From NCBI RefSeq assembly GCF_003086415.1, contig NZ_QEFP02000014.1:3496-35495 (forward strand): a stretch of DNA of 32,000 nucleotides. The letters are read 5' to 3'. The position numbers were made by a program, and so were the translations under genes. This document shows, one piece after another, positions 2,653 to 31,512 of the stretch. Each line of letters starts with the position of its first letter. The first letter of the stretch is position 1. Under the pieces are notes generated by a model. The model had not been told where the DNA came from. It searched no databases and worked only from the letters and a program-made list of their open reading frames with translations. This DNA is from Candidatus Nanobsidianus stetteri. Its GTDB lineage: Archaea > Nanobdellota > Nanobdellia > Nanobdellales > Nanobdellaceae.

Positions 2653-3465
2653 ATGGCATACTTAACAAACATGCTTTTTCCATATAGGGAAAGAAAAAGT
2701 GAAAAGTCAAATCTCACTCTTGATAGTATAATTAATAGTTCTAGAAATCCTGGAAATTATGAAAATACAAATTTCAATTATCCTAAAAAACCACATTATT
2801 ATGCTATAATTGTTTTAGGAGGAGGTCCAGAACATACTGAATATAGACTTAAAAAAGCAATAGAATTATACAAACAAGGAATTGCAGATTACTTGATTGT
2901 AACAGTTGGTGAAACCGATGTTTCTATTGCTAAAAAAATAATAGAAAATGCTGATATAGATAAAGATAAATATATAGTTGATGATAGATCTACAACTACA
3001 TTGCATAATGCTCTTTATGCTAAAGAAATACTTCGAAATTTAAATGTACCAAAAGGTACATTAACAGCAATATTAACAGAAAGTCCTCATTGTCCTAGAG
3101 CTAGGGATACATTTGACCTAATCTTTAGAGGAAAATATAAAATAGATTCAATTTGTATTGAGCCTCTTCCAGATCCATATATGTGGGGTAAAGAAGAAAA
3201 AATAAAAAGTATAAGAAAATACATTCATCCTTTATATCCCTCATTAATTATCTCCTTAACATATTCAGAAAAATATTTAAGTTATTTACCAGGAATGAAT
3301 GAAGAAAAAGCAGAGAAAATTGTTGATAAATTTGTAAGATCTACATCAGATACTATTAGCTATTTATTTAATACATCCTTAAAATATGCTAATAATGTAA
3401 AAGAATATATCAAGAGAGTACTTGGAAGTTATAGATCACATGTAAATGCATCTCCAAGTAGCTAA
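2653..3465 (+). CDS. DUF218 (YdcF/ElyC/SanA-like) domain protein
   Basis: YAIIVLGGGPEHTEYRLKKAIELYKQGIADYLIVTVGE...DDRSTTTLHNALYAKEIL matches the DUF218 signature as I recall it (vivVLGgg ... R ... a.ly..G.a..ii.sGg ... S.nT.eNa). Confidence 0.5.
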   Translation: MAYLTNMLFPYRERKSEKSNLTLDSIINSSRNPGNYENTNFNYPKKPHYYAIIVLGGGPEHTEYRLKKAIELYKQGIADYLIVTVGETDVSIAKKIIENADIDKDKYIVDDRSTTTLHNALYAKEILRNLNVPKGTLTAILTESPHCPRARDTFDLIFRGKYKIDSICIEPLPDPYMWGKEEKIKSIRKYIHPLYPSLIISLTYSEKYLSYLPGMNEEKAEKIVDKFVRSTSDTISYLFNTSLKYANNVKEYIKRVLGSYRSHVNASPSS

Positions 3466-4510: not shown

Positions 4511-4594
4511 TGCGGCGGAGGGGATTTGAACCCCTGGCGGATCTTATCCAATCGGACCTAAACCGACCCCCTTTGACCTCTCGGGCACCGCCGC
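4511..4594 (-). tRNA. tRNA-Leu (anticodon UAG), class II with long variable arm
   Basis: Reverse complement is GCGGCGG TG CCCGAGAGGTCAAAGGGG GTCGG-TTTAGGT-CCGAT, variable arm GGAT-AAG-ATCC, AGGGG-TTCAAAT-CCCCT, CCGCCGC, A. No CCA is encoded and there is no intron. Confidence 0.9.
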
Positions 4595-11325: not shown

Positions 11326-11922
11326 ATGGATGAATTTAATAAATTAAAAATATATCATATGAAAAAACTTGAGGAAGCTAAGGAAAAATATTTAGCAGAT
11401 CAACCTATATATTATATTCTAGATCTTATTAATTCATTAGATTTCTTTTTTACAACATCTTCATGTGCAGGTAGGATAATTTTATTAAAAATACCAAAAA
11501 GTGGGAAAAAATTTGAGGCCGAATTTCTATTTAAATCCCATTATTATGTAAATTTTTATTATATATGGAATAAATTATTAGAAGTATATAAAAATTATGA
11601 TGAGAAAATATACTTTAAACAAGAACCATTTATTTTGCATGTATCTTCAAAAAATATAGAAAGGGCATATGAACTATTAAATATTGCAAGAAAATCCGGA
11701 TTCAAACATTCTGGAATATTTTTGATAAATGATAAAAGGGTAATGGTTGAAATTGTTGGAAATGAAAAAATTGAAACAATTGTATCAAAAAATAGAAAAT
11801 TATTGGTAGATAAAGAATATTTTTATAATTTAGTAAAAGAGGCAAATGAGAAGTTAAAGAATGTAAGAAAAAGAATAAATATATTTTATAAAAATCTTCT
11901 ATCCTATTATATAACAAAATGA
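11326..11922 (+). CDS. taw3: tRNA wyosine-derivative methyltransferase Taw3 (TYW3 family)
   Basis: FFFTTSSCAGRIILL matches the TYW3 signature SSC(S/A)GRI, and the length of about 200 aa is typical of archaeal Taw3. Confidence 0.7.
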   Translation: MDEFNKLKIYHMKKLEEAKEKYLADQPIYYILDLINSLDFFFTTSSCAGRIILLKIPKSGKKFEAEFLFKSHYYVNFYYIWNKLLEVYKNYDEKIYFKQEPFILHVSSKNIERAYELLNIARKSGFKHSGIFLINDKRVMVEIVGNEKIETIVSKNRKLLVDKEYFYNLVKEANEKLKNVRKRINIFYKNLLSYYITK

Positions 11923-13392
11923 ATTATCACAATAATTATTCATTGTTTCATTATTTATTCCTACAAATTCATATAAATAATAATTGTATGTAAATTGATT
12001 ATTTATATTTAATTCTGAAACATTACATGTAGCATTAAAGTAATAATTTCCATTATTATTATAACATTCAGATATGGTTGTACATAAATTTGATAAATAA
12101 CTTTCCAATGAATTTTGTGAATTTGAACAGTCAGAAGAATTTTTGTACGGACCAAATTGCAATGTTTCATTATTTATAGAGCAACTTACATTATTATAAT
12201 TTATCTGAATATCTACAGGTATTAAAGCTGGATAATATCCATCAGTATAATATGCATAATTTTCTAAAATATTTTCTACAAAACTTGTACTAACTTCTAC
12301 ATTTTTTTCATTAATAATATTTACACCAGTTATATTATACCAATATCCATTGAATATGTTGATTTTATTCAATACTTGATAATTTAACTTTGATAAAATG
12401 GCACTTACATTATTTAAACATTCCTTCATATATTCACTATATATACTATTTACTATACATTGATTATTTACAATCTGCCCAATTGATTCACATGGTATTA
12501 CGATTGTTACATTTGTAATATTTGGATCTTCTACTGGCAAAAGTTGAGATGTATATAGATCTAAAACATAATAATACGGATTATTGAATGAAAAATTTAA
12601 ATATAAATTATCTCCGATTGTTTCTTCAGAATATGCACTTTGATATAAATCTATATAATTTGATTGATTTATTAAATTGTTATATATAAATTGAAATGTT
12701 TGATTATATAAATAATCTATTAATTCATTATAATATAATAAAAAGGGATATATTGAATAACCTATTTGATTATTTAATTCAGGGAAAGTTAAACTTCTTT
12801 CATATTTATTTAATACAAAGAAATAATATTGTGGATTTGATAATACAAAATTATTAGAACCATCATAATAGAAATCCTGATATGAAAAATTTGCATGTTT
12901 AAAATTTAAATTTCCATTTAAATATCCGATTTCATTGTTTAAATCTTGACTTACAATGTTTTTAATACTAAAAAATATATTTTCAATATTTTGATAGTTG
13001 TTTACATTATTTAAAGGAATTACTGGGACACATAATGAATAAATTATGTTATAATTATTTCCATTATCTTCTATATTGGTTAGATTAAATAAAAAAGGAA
13101 CTTCACATTGAGAATAATAATTTGGAATATTATTTCCAAATATATAATTTATATTATATGTAGATCCTTTAAAAATATTTGTAAAAAGATTATTTAATAA
13201 ATTATATCTAATATCAAATGGTATATAAACAAATAATATATATAAAAATCCCTGATATGCAATATAATCTTCACTTAAATATTTTAAAGATTGAGTTGCA
13301 ATTTGAATCTGGGAATTTAAATAAAATATACCAAAGAGAACTAAAATTATTACTCCTAAGAATAATGCTACTGGTGCTAAAGATGTTTTCAT
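11899..13392 (-). CDS. Surface-island protein (497 aa), N-terminal anchor or pilin-like helix, 12 Cys
   Basis: MKTSLAPVALFLGVIILVLFGIFYL is followed by an Asn/Tyr-rich ectodomain with many N-x-S/T sequons and 12 Cys (hand count). It is the last gene of the minus-strand operon, and its 3' end overlaps the taw3 3' end by 24 nt. Confidence 0.75.
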   Translation of the reverse strand: MKTSLAPVALFLGVIILVLFGIFYLNSQIQIATQSLKYLSEDYIAYQGFLYILFVYIPFDIRYNLLNNLFTNIFKGSTYNINYIFGNNIPNYYSQCEVPFLFNLTNIEDNGNNYNIIYSLCVPVIPLNNVNNYQNIENIFFSIKNIVSQDLNNEIGYLNGNLNFKHANFSYQDFYYDGSNNFVLSNPQYYFFVLNKYERSLTFPELNNQIGYSIYPFLLYYNELIDYLYNQTFQFIYNNLINQSNYIDLYQSAYSEETIGDNLYLNFSFNNPYYYVLDLYTSQLLPVEDPNITNVTIVIPCESIGQIVNNQCIVNSIYSEYMKECLNNVSAILSKLNYQVLNKINIFNGYWYNITGVNIINEKNVEVSTSFVENILENYAYYTDGYYPALIPVDIQINYNNVSCSINNETLQFGPYKNSSDCSNSQNSLESYLSNLCTTISECYNNNGNYYFNATCNVSELNINNQFTYNYYLYEFVGINNETMNNYCDNSFCYIIG

Positions 13393-13423
13393 ATAAATTC
13401 AATAAATTTTAAAATTATTAACT

Positions 13424-13903
13424 TTAAGTTGAATAACCACTAGTATAATTTACATAAAAGTTATATAATACTGTTGGTGGACAAACATAGAATGTATATG
13501 ATTCACCATTTAAATAAACATAATAATTTATATATTCTTTATTTGGACATGCACCAATGATTGTATTATTATTAAAATAGAATGATAAAATTGTAGCGGA
13601 ATCATTTAAATAATATAACTCTTCATTTGCCAATTCATTTATTATATAATTATCCAATGCTGTATTATTATAAAATCCTGCGTATATATCTATTACAGGT
13701 ACAGTTACATTATCAAAATAAATTAAAGAATCTAAAAAACCATTTGCAGATTTATATTCAATACCAACAGCATTTAAACCTGCAATATTATTTAGTGTTG
13801 GATTTCCATAGGAAAATATATTAAAGATAAATATAAATAGTAGAACTATAACAATAATTACTGCAGCAATAAATGATAAAAAGAATCCAATTTGTATTTT
13901 CAT
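13424..13903 (-). CDS. Surface-island protein (159 aa), N-terminal anchor or pilin-like helix, 2 Cys
   Basis: Begins MKIQIGFFLSFIAAVIIVIVLLFIFIF. Its start overlaps the upstream stop as ATGA (13900-13903). Confidence 0.75.
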   Translation of the reverse strand: MKIQIGFFLSFIAAVIIVIVLLFIFIFNIFSYGNPTLNNIAGLNAVGIEYKSANGFLDSLIYFDNVTVPVIDIYAGFYNNTALDNYIINELANEELYYLNDSATILSFYFNNNTIIGACPNKEYINYYVYLNGESYTFYVCPPTVLYNFYVNYTSGYST

Positions 13904-14748
13904 TGTATTTGAGTAATTTTACATGAAGATATATTTATTTGGCCTCCAGCAATTATATTACATGTTTCATTATATATTCCATTCATATAAAGATTTCCTA
14001 CACCGTATAAAGATACTATTACTGGTTCTCCACTATCATATTCTGGTAAAGTAATATAATATGATGCTATTGGTTGAATATATACTTCAGTATAATATAC
14101 AGTTCCATAAGTTGCAGTAGAATTGAGTATTTCAGTATTATTTATAAATTGATAGTTTTGATACATATATTCTGTCTCATTATATATATATAAACTATAA
14201 TTATAGAAATAATTGATTAAAAATTGGTTTAAAGATGGTAGATTTTCGTATGTGTAATCTACATTATAAATATTATATGCAACATAATATGGATTAACAT
14301 TTATATCATTTTCAAAACTAAGGTTATATGGATCATATGAATATGAATTACTTATATTGTTAATATCATAGAAAAAGAAGTATATATAATCGTCATAAGA
14401 GAAATTTAAATATGTATATATAACTTCATTTGATTGATTTGATTCATTAGTAAAATAATCTAATGTTCCTGAGATATTCATAAAGCATTGTTGATATACA
14501 TTATTATATTCATTGATAATATTTGGATTGGGAGCATAAAATAATAATAATGGATTTCCTGTATCTTCATATAAACAATAATTTAATCTATCAATTAATA
14601 AACTATTTGTAAATTGCTGATATGTATATTCAGAATACGATTCAATATTAAATAATGCATATAATATTGCTACAATAAAAAATGCGAATATTATAACAAC
14701 CGCAGCAGCAATATATTCAATTATATCTTTTAAAGATAATGATCTCAT
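13900..14748 (-). CDS. Surface-island protein (282 aa), pilin-like N-terminus, 4 Cys, 12 N-x-S/T sequons
   Basis: MRSLSLKDIIEYIAAAVVIIFAFFIV resembles the archaeal class III signal pattern (basic residue, small residue, then x-S-L-x-acidic, then a hydrophobic helix). ATGA overlaps at both ends. Confidence 0.75.
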   Translation of the reverse strand: MRSLSLKDIIEYIAAAVVIIFAFFIVAILYALFNIESYSEYTYQQFTNSLLIDRLNYCLYEDTGNPLLLFYAPNPNIINEYNNVYQQCFMNISGTLDYFTNESNQSNEVIYTYLNFSYDDYIYFFFYDINNISNSYSYDPYNLSFENDINVNPYYVAYNIYNVDYTYENLPSLNQFLINYFYNYSLYIYNETEYMYQNYQFINNTEILNSTATYGTVYYTEVYIQPIASYYITLPEYDSGEPVIVSLYGVGNLYMNGIYNETCNIIAGGQINISSCKITQIQ

Positions 14749-15857
14749 GATGTAGAAGATAATACTGATACATTTAAATATGGTTGGCCTCCAGATTGTA
14801 CACCCACCTTTGATAAAATAATAAACTCTGGAAATACTTGATTACCATTATTATCTACATTTCCTAAATCTAGTTTGAATATATTATCCTGTGAATTATC
14901 TTGTGAATTATAAATGTATGTAAAACTTGTATCACATAAATAATTATTACTACATCCATTATAAAATGTAAACTCGGGATTATAATATATTGACAATGTT
15001 AAATATGGTTGATATACTGTATATTTTCCATTTGGAATTGACAAAAAGAGCCAATTAGTGCTTTGTTGTATAAATTGATTATAATAGCAACTTGCATATG
15101 GACTCGATGTAGCTTGCCAATATTGATATAAGGTAATTGATGCAGTAAATGCTAAATTAAATGCAAAACCAGCTACAAAATCAGCTGGAGGTGGTAAAAC
15201 TTCATCTAATATCATATCTCCAACCTGCATTATAGTAAATTCTGCAGTAGACCACAAGGTAGGTCCCACAGAAGATTGTAATGCATTAAATATATCTCCC
15301 CATATGTTATAGTTTCCGGATGCATATTGTAAAAGTGTAGATTGATATGTATATAATCCATATGTACCAGCAGCAGCTATTGCTGTTTGTTTTGCAATTT
15401 GAGATGAAGATCCAAATACTTTATTTAAAGCATTTAGTAAAGATGTTGTTTTACCACCATACTTTAATCCTGGCAGATATGAAAATACTTCAGCCATAAA
15501 AGAATTTAATGCATCATCTGCAAGTTGTTGCCATAGATCATTTACATAACATTCTCCAATACTAACTAAAAAATCATTATTATTATATAAAGGAATAAAT
15601 AGGGCGGATGATTGTATTGGAGGAATTATCCTAAATTCATAGAAAAATACTGGAGCATTTGTTACAAAAAATGCTGCTGTCATATTCCCAGGTTCTGATG
15701 TTGAATATGTAATAAAACCAGCAACTTCCAATATTAAATAAGGATTATGTGTACCAAATATTCTTGCAATAATATATGGAAAATATATTCCTATTAGTGA
15801 TACAATTATTAAAAATATTGATGCTATTATTGCATCTAATAATTCATCAACATCCAT
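14745..15857 (-). CDS. Surface-island protein (370 aa) with an N-terminal helix and internal Ala/Gly/Thr-rich hydrophobic segments, 4 Cys
   Basis: The N-terminal helix is MDVDELLDAIIASIFLIIVSLIGIYF. Internal segments include QTAIAAAGTYGLY and ADFVAGFAFNLAFTASITLYQYW. One nt separates it from the upstream stop. Confidence 0.75.
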   Translation of the reverse strand: MDVDELLDAIIASIFLIIVSLIGIYFPYIIARIFGTHNPYLILEVAGFITYSTSEPGNMTAAFFVTNAPVFFYEFRIIPPIQSSALFIPLYNNNDFLVSIGECYVNDLWQQLADDALNSFMAEVFSYLPGLKYGGKTTSLLNALNKVFGSSSQIAKQTAIAAAGTYGLYTYQSTLLQYASGNYNIWGDIFNALQSSVGPTLWSTAEFTIMQVGDMILDEVLPPPADFVAGFAFNLAFTASITLYQYWQATSSPYASCYYNQFIQQSTNWLFLSIPNGKYTVYQPYLTLSIYYNPEFTFYNGCSNNYLCDTSFTYIYNSQDNSQDNIFKLDLGNVDNNGNQVFPEFIILSKVGVQSGGQPYLNVSVLSSTS

Positions 15858-15858
15858 A

Positions 15859-16800
15859 TTATGTAGAAACAGTTTCTCCTATGTATATATTAATATTTGC
15901 TGTATTTCCGTTACTATTTACCTCTATATCCATTACTGTTGGTGGTAAAGAACCTGCAAAATATAATAATGGAAAGTTTATTTGGAAGTATTGGATAATA
16001 TAAGTAAATGTTTCAGAACTTACAATTTCACCTTCAAGATTACTAAGCTGTATTTGAGGATTCTCTGGAAATCCTGACAATTCTACACATACTGATGGAT
16101 TATATGGCAAATTATTGTTATTTGAATTTATATTTGAACTTGGAGCACAAGATATAGAGCCACTTTCTTGATATGTATTACCATTTTCATCAATTGTTGA
16201 TGTAAATGTGCATCCATTATCATTACATGTTATTGTTGTATCATTTACTATAGTAAGAAAGAATGAAGAGGATTCTGGAAAGAAATAATCTATTATATTT
16301 ACAAAAATTTGGAGACCACCTAAGTTCTTATTATTAGTAGAATATGCTAATAAACCAGCATTATCATTTAATCCTTGTATGTTTATATTTATTTGATTTA
16401 TATTACTATTTAAGGATATTTGTTTTACTAATTTACAAAATACTAATGCTGGTGCAAATATAATAGTATTTCCATTATCTGTCGTAGAAACATTCCAATA
16501 TACTACTTTAACGGATAAGAGACCTACAACCTGATTTGGAGGAAAACAATGATATAATTGCAAATACCATCCATTATTGTTTGTCAATACAAAAACATAA
16601 TTATAGTCATAATTATTTATAAATACTTCTCCATTACCTCCATTATTTATATCATTAGCAATTGAATTTAAATATCCAATATATTTTGCATCATTTCCCA
16701 TAGCAACTCCAATAAATGTCACAATAATAAAGTATATTAAAACTACCAATACAATTAATACTATTATATCAAAAATTATTCTAAGAAAATCTCCTCTCAT
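15859..16800 (-). CDS. Surface-island protein (313 aa), pilin-like N-terminus, 6 Cys
   Basis: MRGDFLRIIFDIIVLIVLVVLIYFIIVTF is followed by an Asn-rich ectodomain. Its ATG at 16800 lies 1 nt after the stop (16802-16804) of the upstream micro-ORF. Confidence 0.75.
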   Translation of the reverse strand: MRGDFLRIIFDIIVLIVLVVLIYFIIVTFIGVAMGNDAKYIGYLNSIANDINNGGNGEVFINNYDYNYVFVLTNNNGWYLQLYHCFPPNQVVGLLSVKVVYWNVSTTDNGNTIIFAPALVFCKLVKQISLNSNINQININIQGLNDNAGLLAYSTNNKNLGGLQIFVNIIDYFFPESSSFFLTIVNDTTITCNDNGCTFTSTIDENGNTYQESGSISCAPSSNINSNNNNLPYNPSVCVELSGFPENPQIQLSNLEGEIVSSETFTYIIQYFQINFPLLYFAGSLPPTVMDIEVNSNGNTANINIYIGETVST

Positions 16801-16801
16801 A

Positions 16802-16963
16802 TTATCCTAATCCAGATTGATTTAATATTTTATATCCTACGCTTGTTACATTTGTCTGTATGGAGTTACTTGCTATGTAATAATAAAATATTATAGCTAA
16901 AATAATTATTACTATTGCAATAATTAAAAATATTAAAAAGTTTATTGAATTATCAGCCTCCAT
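16802..16963 (-). CDS. Micro-ORF, 53 aa mini pilin-like protein (not in the ORF track)
   Basis: Hand translation gives MEADNSINFLIFLIIAIVIIILAIIFYYYIASNSIQTNVTSVGYKILNQSGLG. Its ATG lies inside the end of the upstream gene (ATGGAGGCTGA, 11-nt overlap). It shares the S-I-N-F plus helix motif with the 30757 and 30446 ORFs. Confidence 0.6.
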   Translation of the reverse strand: MEADNSINFLIFLIIAIVIIILAIIFYYYIASNSIQTNVTSVGYKILNQSGLG

Positions 16964-17138
16964 AGTTGTTATTATTTATACTATTTACAACATTTGTGCC
17001 ATTTGTTTGCGGTATACTATTAAATAAATTTGCTCCACCTTTAAAATAAAAGTACATAAATATTGCTAATAATACTAGAGCAACTATAAATAATATTATT
17101 GCTACTAAAAATGTATTTACTTGTGTTTTTTTATCCAT
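16953..17138 (-). CDS. Mini pilin-like protein, 61 aa
   Basis: MDKKTQVNTFLVAIILFIVALVLLAIFMYFYF is followed by an Asn/Gly/Ser tail. It overlaps both neighbouring micro-ORFs. Confidence 0.65.
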   Translation of the reverse strand: MDKKTQVNTFLVAIILFIVALVLLAIFMYFYFKGGANLFNSIPQTNGTNVVNSINNNNYGG

Positions 17139-17277
17139 TTCCCCCTATTAATTGATATTGAGCAAATATATTTATATTTAGCCCTAATTTTGGTCCCAAT
17201 ATAACAAAAACAAATATTAATATTAATACAGTAAATATCAATGCAAGAATTATCTTTAGAAGTTCTCCAGTTTCCAT
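17131..17277 (-). CDS. Micro-ORF, 48 aa single-helix membrane or pilin-like protein (not in the ORF track)
   Basis: Hand translation gives METGELLKIILALIFTVLILIFVFVILGPKLGLNINIFAQYQLIGGNG. Its stop overlaps the next gene's start (AATGGATAA). Confidence 0.5.
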   Translation of the reverse strand: METGELLKIILALIFTVLILIFVFVILGPKLGLNINIFAQYQLIGGNG

Positions 17278-30445: not shown

Positions 30446-30748
30446 ATGGTAAAAAAAGGTCAGTCGTTATCAATTAATACATTAATTATATTAATAATAG
30501 GACTTGTTGTTCTAATAATTATAATATTATTTTTTACAGGTACATTTTCTAAAGGAGTAGTTGGAACAAATAATGTATTAAATCCTGCAATAAATCAGAC
30601 AAATCAGTCAGGTCAGTTAATTAATAATTTACAAAATCAAGTAAGTGGAGGATCTAGTTCATCAAGTACATCTAGTACAAGCAGTAATACTCAATCAACC
30701 ACATCTGGTACAACAATAAAAAATCCTAAAGGACCTACTCCTGAATAA
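30446..30748 (+). CDS. Type IV pilin-like protein with canonical archaeal class III signal peptide
   Basis: MVKKGQSLSINTLIILIIGLVVLIIIILFF has K-G at -2/-1, Q at +1 and a hydrophobic helix. The C-terminus is a Ser/Thr-rich tail (GGSSSSSTSSTSSNTQSTTSGTT). Confidence 0.7.
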   Translation: MVKKGQSLSINTLIILIIGLVVLIIIILFFTGTFSKGVVGTNNVLNPAINQTNQSGQLINNLQNQVSGGSSSSSTSSTSSNTQSTTSGTTIKNPKGPTPE

Positions 30749-30756
30749 TCTATAAG

Positions 30757-30945
30757 ATGAAAAGATCTGACGCCATAAATTTTGTAATCCTTTTAATAAT
30801 TGGGCTTATTGTTTTGGTACTAGTTATAATTTTTGTAGCTCCTCAAACCCTTAATATAATGTCATCTCAACAAAACTTATCAAATACATCAAATAATGTT
30901 TTAAATCAAACATTTAGCAATATATCAAATATATCAAATTTATAA
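30757..30945 (+). CDS. Mini pilin-like protein, 62 aa
   Basis: MKRSDAINFVILLIIGLIVLVLVIIFV is followed by an Asn/Ser/Gln tail containing sequons (NLSNTSNN, NQTFSNISNISN). It starts 8 nt after the preceding pilin-like gene. Confidence 0.65.
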   Translation: MKRSDAINFVILLIIGLIVLVLVIIFVAPQTLNIMSSQQNLSNTSNNVLNQTFSNISNISNL

Positions 30946-31368: not shown

Positions 31369-31512
31369 TTACCACTCTTCTTCCCACTCTTCATCCCATT
31401 CTTCTTCTCCTTCATCCCATTCCTCATCCCAATCTTCATCCCAATCTTCACCTTCTTCTGGAGCCATCATTTTCATTTCTTCTACCTTTCTTTTTAAGTC
31501 TTCCCAATCCAT
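31369..31512 (-). CDS. Micro-ORF, 47 aa acidic Trp-repeat peptide (not in the ORF track)
   Basis: Hand translation gives MDWEDLKRKVEEMKMMAPEEGEDWDEDWDEEWDEGEEEWDEEWEEEW. It lies between the NMD3-like gene and aIF1A on the same strand. The mirror plus-strand ORF (31300-31497) is Phe/Pro/Leu junk. Confidence 0.4.
   Translation of the reverse strand: MDWEDLKRKVEEMKMMAPEEGEDWDEDWDEEWDEGEEEWDEEWEEEW

Follow-up and report, generated by a model that had tools for sequence, protein, structure and literature searches.

Candidate small type IV pilin-like proteins and their archaeal relatives in a genome segment of Candidatus Nanobsidianus stetteri

The 32-kb stretch of Candidatus Nanobsidianus stetteri DNA analyzed here (called the window throughout) encodes several very small proteins, below termed minis, among them a 100-amino-acid (100-aa) product named m100. 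A sequence-only reading of this DNA had connected the minis with archaeal type IV pilins, and this connection is the subject of the present report. The window has a G+C content of about 24% and carries typical archaeal housekeeping genes, namely those for arginyl- and alanyl-tRNA synthetase (ArgRS, AlaRS), aIF-1A, fibrillarin/Nop56 and fructose-bisphosphate (FBP) aldolase/phosphatase. Its gene order is shared with Nanopusillus acidilobi, with Nst1 and with five Nanopusillus metagenome-assembled genomes, and one island protein shows 100% identity to a protein of Candidatus Nanobsidianus stetteri; these features place the source among the terrestrial nanoarchaea of the Nanopusillus/Nanobsidianus group. 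The minis are found at three loci as follows.

30446-30748, plus strand: m100, a mini protein of 100 aa that starts MVKKGQSLSINT; open reading frame (ORF) present.
30757-30945, plus strand: m62b, 62 aa, N-terminus MKRSDAINFVILLIIGLIVL, head MKRSDAINF; ORF present, with orthologs.
23772-23960, minus strand: m62a, 62 aa, head MKSNISIDM; ORF present, with orthologs.
16802-16963, minus strand: m53, 53 aa, head MEADNSINF, member of the island operon; ORF present, with orthologs.
16953-17138, minus strand: m61, 61 aa, head MDKKTQVNTF; ORF present, with orthologs, family membership marginal.
17131-17277, minus strand: m48, 48 aa, acidic head METGELLKIILALIF with no K-G; gene called in three related loci.

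These minis are genuine genes, conserved at the protein level and retained with the same neighbours in at least eight related genomes altogether. The ORFs and N-termini originally quoted could be located at all three loci and recur in related genomes: m100 and both 62-aa ORFs have orthologs in six to seven species in the same gene order, with m62b adjoining m100 in seven species and in the nanoarchaeote YN1 and m62a kept in six species, and the 53-, 61- and 48-aa ORFs are present in identical order in the three island loci that were fetched. As m62b begins only 8 nt after m100, both are probably co-transcribed. Upstream of the ATG of each mini an in-frame stop codon follows within 2-4 codons, so that the heads cannot be longer than given here; misannotation of start codons as the source of the short heads is thereby ruled out.

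The N-terminus of the m100 product is MVKKGQSLSINTLIILIIGLVVL. Its predicted leader is MVKKG (codons 30446-30460, plus strand), with a putative cut before Q6, followed by QSLSINT and a hydrophobic helix. Among the minis of the window m100 alone obeys a FlaFind-type rule, which asks for a charged residue (mostly K or R) at -2 and G or A at -1 close to the N-terminus and then for some 20 hydrophobic residues (here K4-G5, then QSLSINT, then helix 10-32); positions -2, -1 and +1 are important according to the literature. The protein comprises a conserved core of 68 aa and a variable Ser/Thr-rich tail. It has 31 homologs; Q6 and S7 are invariant, and two N-x-S/T sequons are conserved. AlphaFold2 (AF2) predicts a confident helix at residues 10-32 and a disordered tail, and on this model m100 would be a helix-only subunit. 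A separate observation concerns the C-terminus (30650-30748, plus strand; homologs in A1, L005, L007 and L010), which is highly variable: many homologs stop at 65-73 aa, others extend by 30-55 residues that are Ser/Thr-rich or unrelated, and in one (P0020) the Ser/Thr tract looks as if it were read in a shifted frame. This low-complexity tail could be phase-variable or simply unconstrained.

A profile of the family was run against 1.84 billion representative proteins with a cut-off of E <= 0.001 and revealed 87 relatives, nearly all of them 50-200 aa long and matching from residue 1-8 onwards. The nearer relatives, minis of other nanoarchaea, begin for example with MKGVELGINT, MKKGDLSISY, MKRSVEIALGT, MKKKAVEIAFGT and MKSDISISF. 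More distant relatives exhibit canonical heads (MKKGQGLPVNT, MKKAQLSINT, MSSKKAQGLPINF, MNKKGAELSLNF and MKGQISINT) and frequently possess Cys-rich C-terminal domains. The anchor-aligned consensus reads K-K-[G/A]-Q-[S/G/E]-L-[S/P]-I-N-T, after which come the helix and LFFTGxF, and m100 fits it at all positions. The KKGQ class III-type head that had been pointed out for the 100-aa ORF agrees with this consensus. The suggested Asn or Asp in place of the conserved acidic residue near +5 is a feature of the whole family: the polar anchor at the start of the helix is Asn in 46/85 and Glu in 10/85 sequences, at +5 or +6 from the predicted cut.

Two further comparisons strengthen this relationship. 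Aligned with hhalign, the m100 family and 43 distant heads match with 99.5% probability over 53 columns, the LFFTGxF motif included. A head-only hidden Markov model (HMM), built from the distant proteins alone without any nanoarchaeal sequence, was scanned over the 176 ORFs of the window and found m100 (62.8 bits), m62b (29.8 bits), m62a (24.4 bits) and weakly m53 (9.2 bits) but no other ORF; m62b and m62a match over the helix part only. Judged by these sequence similarities, m100 belongs to an archaeal protein family that is covered by no curated library. An exact look-up of the 100-aa protein returned no record. In Pfam scans of m100 and of ten distant relatives, PF04021 (Class_IIIsignal, DUF361) did not appear at E <= 1. 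Compared with the motif of this family, Q(+1)-x-S(+3)-x-E(+5), Gln at +1 is present and invariant here, +5 is Ile and +6 is Asn, Asp or Glu; shorter relatives, e.g., MKGQISINT, carry Q-x-S-x-N. PF07790 (Pilin_N, gathering threshold 25.2 bits) gave no match for m100 and a sub-threshold one for m53 (14.4 bits, E = 0.073) confined to the helix. Only unrelated single-helix families such as SAG1386_EF1546 and LlsX appeared in NCBIfam at E <= 10, and a sequence search of the PDB with the family profile yielded a single chance match (E = 1.7).

In a genome of about 24% G+C, off-frame ORFs are often rich in Ile, Leu and Phe. The resemblance among the minis might then be an artefact of composition, with Ile/Leu/Val helices and Asn-rich tails arising in short AT-rich ORFs some of which are no genes at all. 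To test paralogy, an HMM was made for every ortholog group, and its scores on the remaining groups were compared with those on 2000 decoys per target; the decoys came from independent shuffling of head, helix and tail, so that the composition of each segment was kept. For m100, m62b, m62a and m53 only 0-18/2000 decoys match the real score, in both directions; m62b beats all 2000 decoys in comparison with m100 and with m53, and the range is 0-18/2000 for m62a and 0-14/2000 for m53. The HMM of m61 reaches m100 with 1/2000 decoys, the reverse comparisons not being significant. The similarity of m48 to the other minis is no greater than that of composition-matched decoys (2000 shuffles). The failure of m48, and largely of m61, is what an artefact of composition would produce. 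Against this explanation stand the performance of the other four minis in the segment-preserving shuffles, the conserved protein sequences and gene order of all minis in those related genomes that were fetched, and the fact that an HMM built from unrelated organisms picks just these ORFs among all those of the window. We therefore regard it as extremely improbable, and for the four members conservation and shuffle tests exclude spurious ORFs.

Four minis (100, 62, 62 and 53 aa) are thus true paralogs, m61 is marginal and m48 is unrelated. The paralogs share [S/A]-I-[N/D]-x, a helix with IIG/AL and an NNVLNQT-like tail, and m62b, m62a and m53 are lineage-specific paralogs of m100. The sequence-only reading had counted five to six paralogs at three loci; four of them are solid and m61 is borderline, and m48 was not on its list.

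As proposed before, only one member in the window, m100, has the classical cleavage motif [KR]-G. In m62b the corresponding residues are R3-S4 and in m62a K2-S3/N3; no such site exists in m53 or m61. When aligned by homology, the three paralogs begin with their initiator Met opposite position -2 of m100, which leaves almost no leader. S4 and D5 of m62b are each found in 34/36 homologs. The nanoarchaeote YN1 shows the same gene order with the heads MKKGQSIAINT and, in the m62b ortholog, MKKGDLSISY; therefore Ser4 of m62b corresponds to Gly at -1. Relatives of m53 elsewhere begin with MKSDISISF or MRLDDSINF. The leader has been lost in a graded manner, from MKKG in YN1 via MVKKG and MKRS in the window to the uncharged head of the 53-aa protein. 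At the opposite end of the molecules, the tails of m62b and m62a contain five N-x-S/T sequons each and are enriched in them if compared with shuffles (z = 2.9 and 4.2, respectively). Cells of N. acidilobi are known to be surface-glycosylated, and sequon-bearing tails fit a C-terminus-out orientation.

The gene context of the distant relatives provides evidence of a different kind. At all four distant loci with enough contig (L014, L015/L016, L018 and L019) a family member is located 0.05-5 kb downstream of a T2SSE ATPase of about 750 aa (for L015, PF00437 with 54 bits versus a cut-off of 24.9). Adjoining the ATPase is a putative platform protein of about 680-720 aa, with sub-threshold T2SSF matches at equivalent positions in the two that were scanned, and both genes sit within arrays of small and large KKG/KKA-headed proteins. 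Archaeal type IV filament loci are laid out in this way, and the pilin reading thereby gains support that is independent of the head motif. Two details of these loci are mentioned for completeness. The T2SSE ATPase of L014 (856-4695) has 1279 aa, with an intein inside (Intein_splicing and LAGLIDADG_3 matches), and acidic-headed ORFs of 43-50 aa like m48 occur in the T2SSE-linked loci (L015 5723-5869 and 7758-7889; L018 9274-9426).

The larger proteins encoded beside the minis of the window are the following.

17308-18528, minus strand: 406-aa protein with an N-terminal hydrophobic helix, first gene of the island operon; placed by the starts of its orthologs.
15859-16800, minus strand: 313-aa island protein, head M-[KR]-[GS]; AF2 model and 107 homologs.
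11899-15857, minus strand: four more genes of the island operon (370, 282, 159 and 497 aa); translations and conserved order.
21136-23775, minus strand: 879-aa protein, head MRGKIFDD, translationally coupled to m62a; pair conserved.

The island on the minus strand is a conserved operon with genes for proteins of 406, 48, 61, 53, 313, 370, 282, 159 and 497 aa. In its make-up it resembles the distant arrays, with a 48-aa acidic-headed mini, several minis of about 60 aa and large proteins with an N-terminal helix, including one of about 870 aa. By phmmer no similarity was detected between the large island proteins and the large proteins of the distant loci that resemble type IV pilus (T4P) loci; the latter contain proteins of 861-866 aa to which the 879-aa protein shows no detected sequence similarity. 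The whole island may represent a pilin array, as architecture and analogy of composition suggest. The 370-, 282-, 159- and 497-aa proteins, in which a long hydrophobic helix comes after a few polar residues at the start and of which several are rich in sequons, may likewise be pilin-like, judging from architecture and context; these four operon proteins gave no family match. The 406-aa protein, whose true start is MKSISDSVIELII since its orthologs begin at the same Met, is without match in Pfam and NCBIfam, and so is the 879-aa protein in Pfam.

Taken together, we consider it reasonably probable that m100 is a very small type IV pilin-like protein accompanied by paralogs with shrunken heads, and that these subunits are assembled by machinery of the FlaI/TadC type. 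According to this proposal m100 would insert in the membrane with its N-terminus inside and its C-terminus outside, and would lose its positively charged head MVKKG by a cut before Gln6. The mature core of about 63 residues would consist of one hydrophobic helix and a short tail that is probably N-glycosylated. The heads of the paralogs have shrunk to M-K-[R/K]-S, to M-K-[S/N] or to an uncharged stub, and these proteins would act as minor subunits cut after a leader of 3-4 residues with Ser at -1, or as subunits used uncut. Assembly would be driven by a FlaI/TadC-type pair encoded elsewhere in the genome, and for contact with the host the subunits would form a thin filament on the surface, or else pilin-like pieces anchored in the membrane. 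The suggested link to type IV pilins is thus favoured by the homology of m100 to the K-K-[G/A]-Q family and by the gene context of the relatives but obtains no backing from curated models or from machinery within the window.

Several findings weigh against such an assignment. The distant relatives were gathered with a helix-dominated profile, and some of them may be driven by composition. No pilin, archaellin or class III signal model of Pfam or NCBIfam matches the minis or the distant family. Scans with family libraries found no ATPase, platform or peptidase gene in the window, a separation of pilin genes from assembly machinery that is a known arrangement in M. maripaludis. Gly at -1 of m100 (G5) is less conserved than Gln+1 and Ser+2, with Ser in 2/23 and Arg in 1/23 aligned homologs, and the heads of m53 and of the 370-aa protein lack a positive charge. 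According to two published surveys no A24 prepilin peptidase is found in Nanoarchaeota, and among the genes tabulated for the closed genome of N. acidilobi there is signal peptidase I but no A24 enzyme. Finally, the minis and island proteins were undetected in the shotgun proteome of N. acidilobi (orthologs Nps_00145 for m62b, Nps_00150 for m100 and Nps_00205-00265 for the island genes), which counts only weakly against high abundance because the minis are small, hydrophobic, probably glycosylated and hard to detect.

The question of the peptidase deserves particular attention. The sequence-only reading had named the lack of a prepilin peptidase gene as an argument against itself, and this lack is what the literature on Nanoarchaeota appears to describe. 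As a test it is unsound, since archaellins and FlaI/FlaJ-type machinery are encoded in these very genomes: the N. acidilobi table lists two archaellins (Nps_01995 and Nps_02010; in Nst1, Nst1_396 and Nst1_399) and FlaI-type ATPases, an A24 enzyme being present in its host, and several FlaI-type ATPases together with FlaJ/TadC homologs occur in Nanopusillus-type genomes. Earlier censuses did not find the cognate pilins of one nanoarchaeal ATPase clade. PibD is known to cut leaders as short as 3 residues. In the minis there could be a divergent peptidase that accepts Ser at -1, subunits that remain uncut, or a mixture of both. A bolder version holds that Nanopusillus-type nanoarchaea may build type IV filaments without a classical A24 peptidase, the leader being cut down to Met-Lys-(Gly/Ser) or lost and the subunits being uncut or trimmed by an unrelated or divergent enzyme accepting Ser at -1. 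At the moment we regard this as doubtful. If true, it would account for the lack of a prepilin peptidase that has long been noted in Nanoarchaeota despite their ATPases, platform proteins and archaellins, and it would supply the pilins missing for one ATPase clade.

The same observations bear on the possibility that the minis are derived from pilins but no longer serve as filament subunits. They would then be uncut, single-pass N-in/C-out glycoproteins comparable to ArlF/ArlG and might partner or anchor the large surface proteins encoded downstream, as in the 62-aa/879-aa pair. Such a role is suggested by the absence of a [KR]-[G/A] site in three of the four paralogs, by the unreported A24 peptidase and by the incomplete conservation of Gly at -1 in m100. 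It also agrees with the gene arrangement, where m62a and the 879-aa gene have 4 nt in common and where m61 and m53 precede genes for large N-terminal-helix proteins in one operon, and with automatic annotation by the Joint Genome Institute (JGI), which labels some m62b homologs as FlaG/FlaF-like. On the other hand, m100 agrees with the canonical head at every consensus position, and the near-fixed Ser4 and Asp5 of m62b argue for a constrained rather than a decayed site. In addition the minis have no globular domain of the ArlF/ArlG kind, and several assembly ATPases without assigned pilins are kept in the same genomes. We consider uncut membrane glycoproteins possible, if on balance rather unlikely.

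A third explanation sees in the N-termini of the minis ordinary Sec signal peptides that are cut by signal peptidase I and release small secreted glycopeptides. The N. acidilobi table indeed flags Nps_00150, the ortholog of m100, as "signal peptide +" and lists signal peptidase I as Nps_01795. Against it, the hydrophobic stretch of the minis comprises 20-25 residues and is modelled as one continuous helix (10-32). The h-region of a typical Sec signal is shorter. The conserved LFFTGTFSKG that follows directly after the helix offers no small-x-small cut site, and homologs are encoded in ATPase/platform loci. Because the helix is too long and a cut site is missing, a Sec signal peptide is unlikely for the minis, and the release of glycopeptides as a whole appears very improbable.

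Among known systems the proposed pilin-like subunits come closest to the Epd pilins of M. maripaludis (EpdE/MMP1685, MMP0528, MMP0903 and MMP1283; Class_IIIsignal/DUF361). The precursors are alike in size (67-76 aa versus the 68-aa core of m100), in the leader of 5-13 residues that ends with Gly, in the K-G-Q site with Gln at +1, in N-glycosylation sequons (Epd subunits of 67-76 aa are glycosylated) and in scattered loci away from the ATPase and platform genes. They differ in position +5, which is Glu in Epd pilins; here Asn, sometimes Glu, is found at +5/+6 and m100 has one extra residue (QSLSIN versus QxSxE). Moreover, PF04021 is without match here, the paralogs lack Gly at -1, and the Epd peptidase EppA has been reported only where clade 1 systems occur and not in nanoarchaea. 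The PibD substrates of Sulfolobales with 3-residue leaders are similar in their short, positive M-[KR]-[small] heads directly before the hydrophobic helix, but the residue aligned with -1 is often Ser in the minis, and Asn in m62a, instead of Gly/Ala, and no PibD homolog has been reported in Nanoarchaeota.

ArlF and ArlG (FlaF and FlaG) are not processed and have, like the minis, an N-terminal hydrophobic helix of the pilin/archaellin type without a canonical cleavage site. They differ by a folded beta-sandwich domain and by their position in the archaellum cluster, whereas the minis carry an unstructured tail of 20-35 residues and are encoded outside an arl cluster. Little more than the N-terminal helix is also present in the bacterial Flp/Tad (type IVc) pilins, whose size is about 50-80 aa; this comparison has likewise been drawn in the M. 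maripaludis literature. The Flp motif Glu5-Tyr6 is absent here and position -2 is positively charged as in archaea; Flp1_like gave weak sub-threshold matches in 4/43 distant members (best E = 0.0024).

Nanoarchaeota are obligate surface symbionts; little is known of the machinery by which they attach, and its evolution is thought to be fast. The minis are concrete candidates for pilins. They are conserved throughout the family, and homology connects them with a broader pilin family of uncultured archaea that lies beyond the curated libraries. With them class III signal processing without a recognisable peptidase becomes testable in the cultivated N. acidilobi-Acidilobus system.

Several additional features of the island and its surroundings were recorded. 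The AF2 model of the 313-aa protein (pLDDT 84, pTM 0.81) comprises a helix at residues 2-52 followed by an all-beta domain and would have the general shape of a pilin. Foldseek gave no PDB match for this model at E <= 0.001, and the beta domain may represent a new fold, or else an adhesin-like domain that has diverged very strongly. The heads of its 107 full-length homologs are MKS (50), MRG (30), MKG (24), MRS (2) and MKV (1), i.e., 106/107 correspond to M-[KR]-[GS]. Divergent from the island operon is the gene of a 409-aa protein (18621-19850, plus strand) that starts with a Sec-like signal, ends with a membrane anchor and contains 22 N-x-S/T sequons (z = 4.5); it probably is a heavily glycosylated surface protein. 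A VKOR-family gene adjoins the 62-aa/879-aa pair (23993-24559, minus strand; L001 16524-17441), and in related genomes a DsbA/thioredoxin-like gene follows about 7 kb beyond it. Together with the invariant cysteines of island proteins (six in the 313-aa family) these genes suggest extracytoplasmic disulfide formation for island surface proteins. In L003, a related metagenomic contig, the 879-aa gene (21136-23775 in the window) is replaced by a 73-aa fragment (2894-3115) that matches residues ~70-140 and is followed by unrelated genes; therefore the large partner of the 62-aa mini is not always intact.

Elsewhere in the window ARAGORN predicts a tRNA-Leu(tag) at 4511-4594 (minus strand), while Rfam at the gathering threshold gave only the other two tRNAs. 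A conserved, extremely acidic ORF of 47-52 aa, rich in Trp, Glu and Asp and ending with ...EEEW, is found at 31369-31512 (minus strand; L001 10954-11112 and L017 10610-10768) and is always located between aIF-1A and NMD3.

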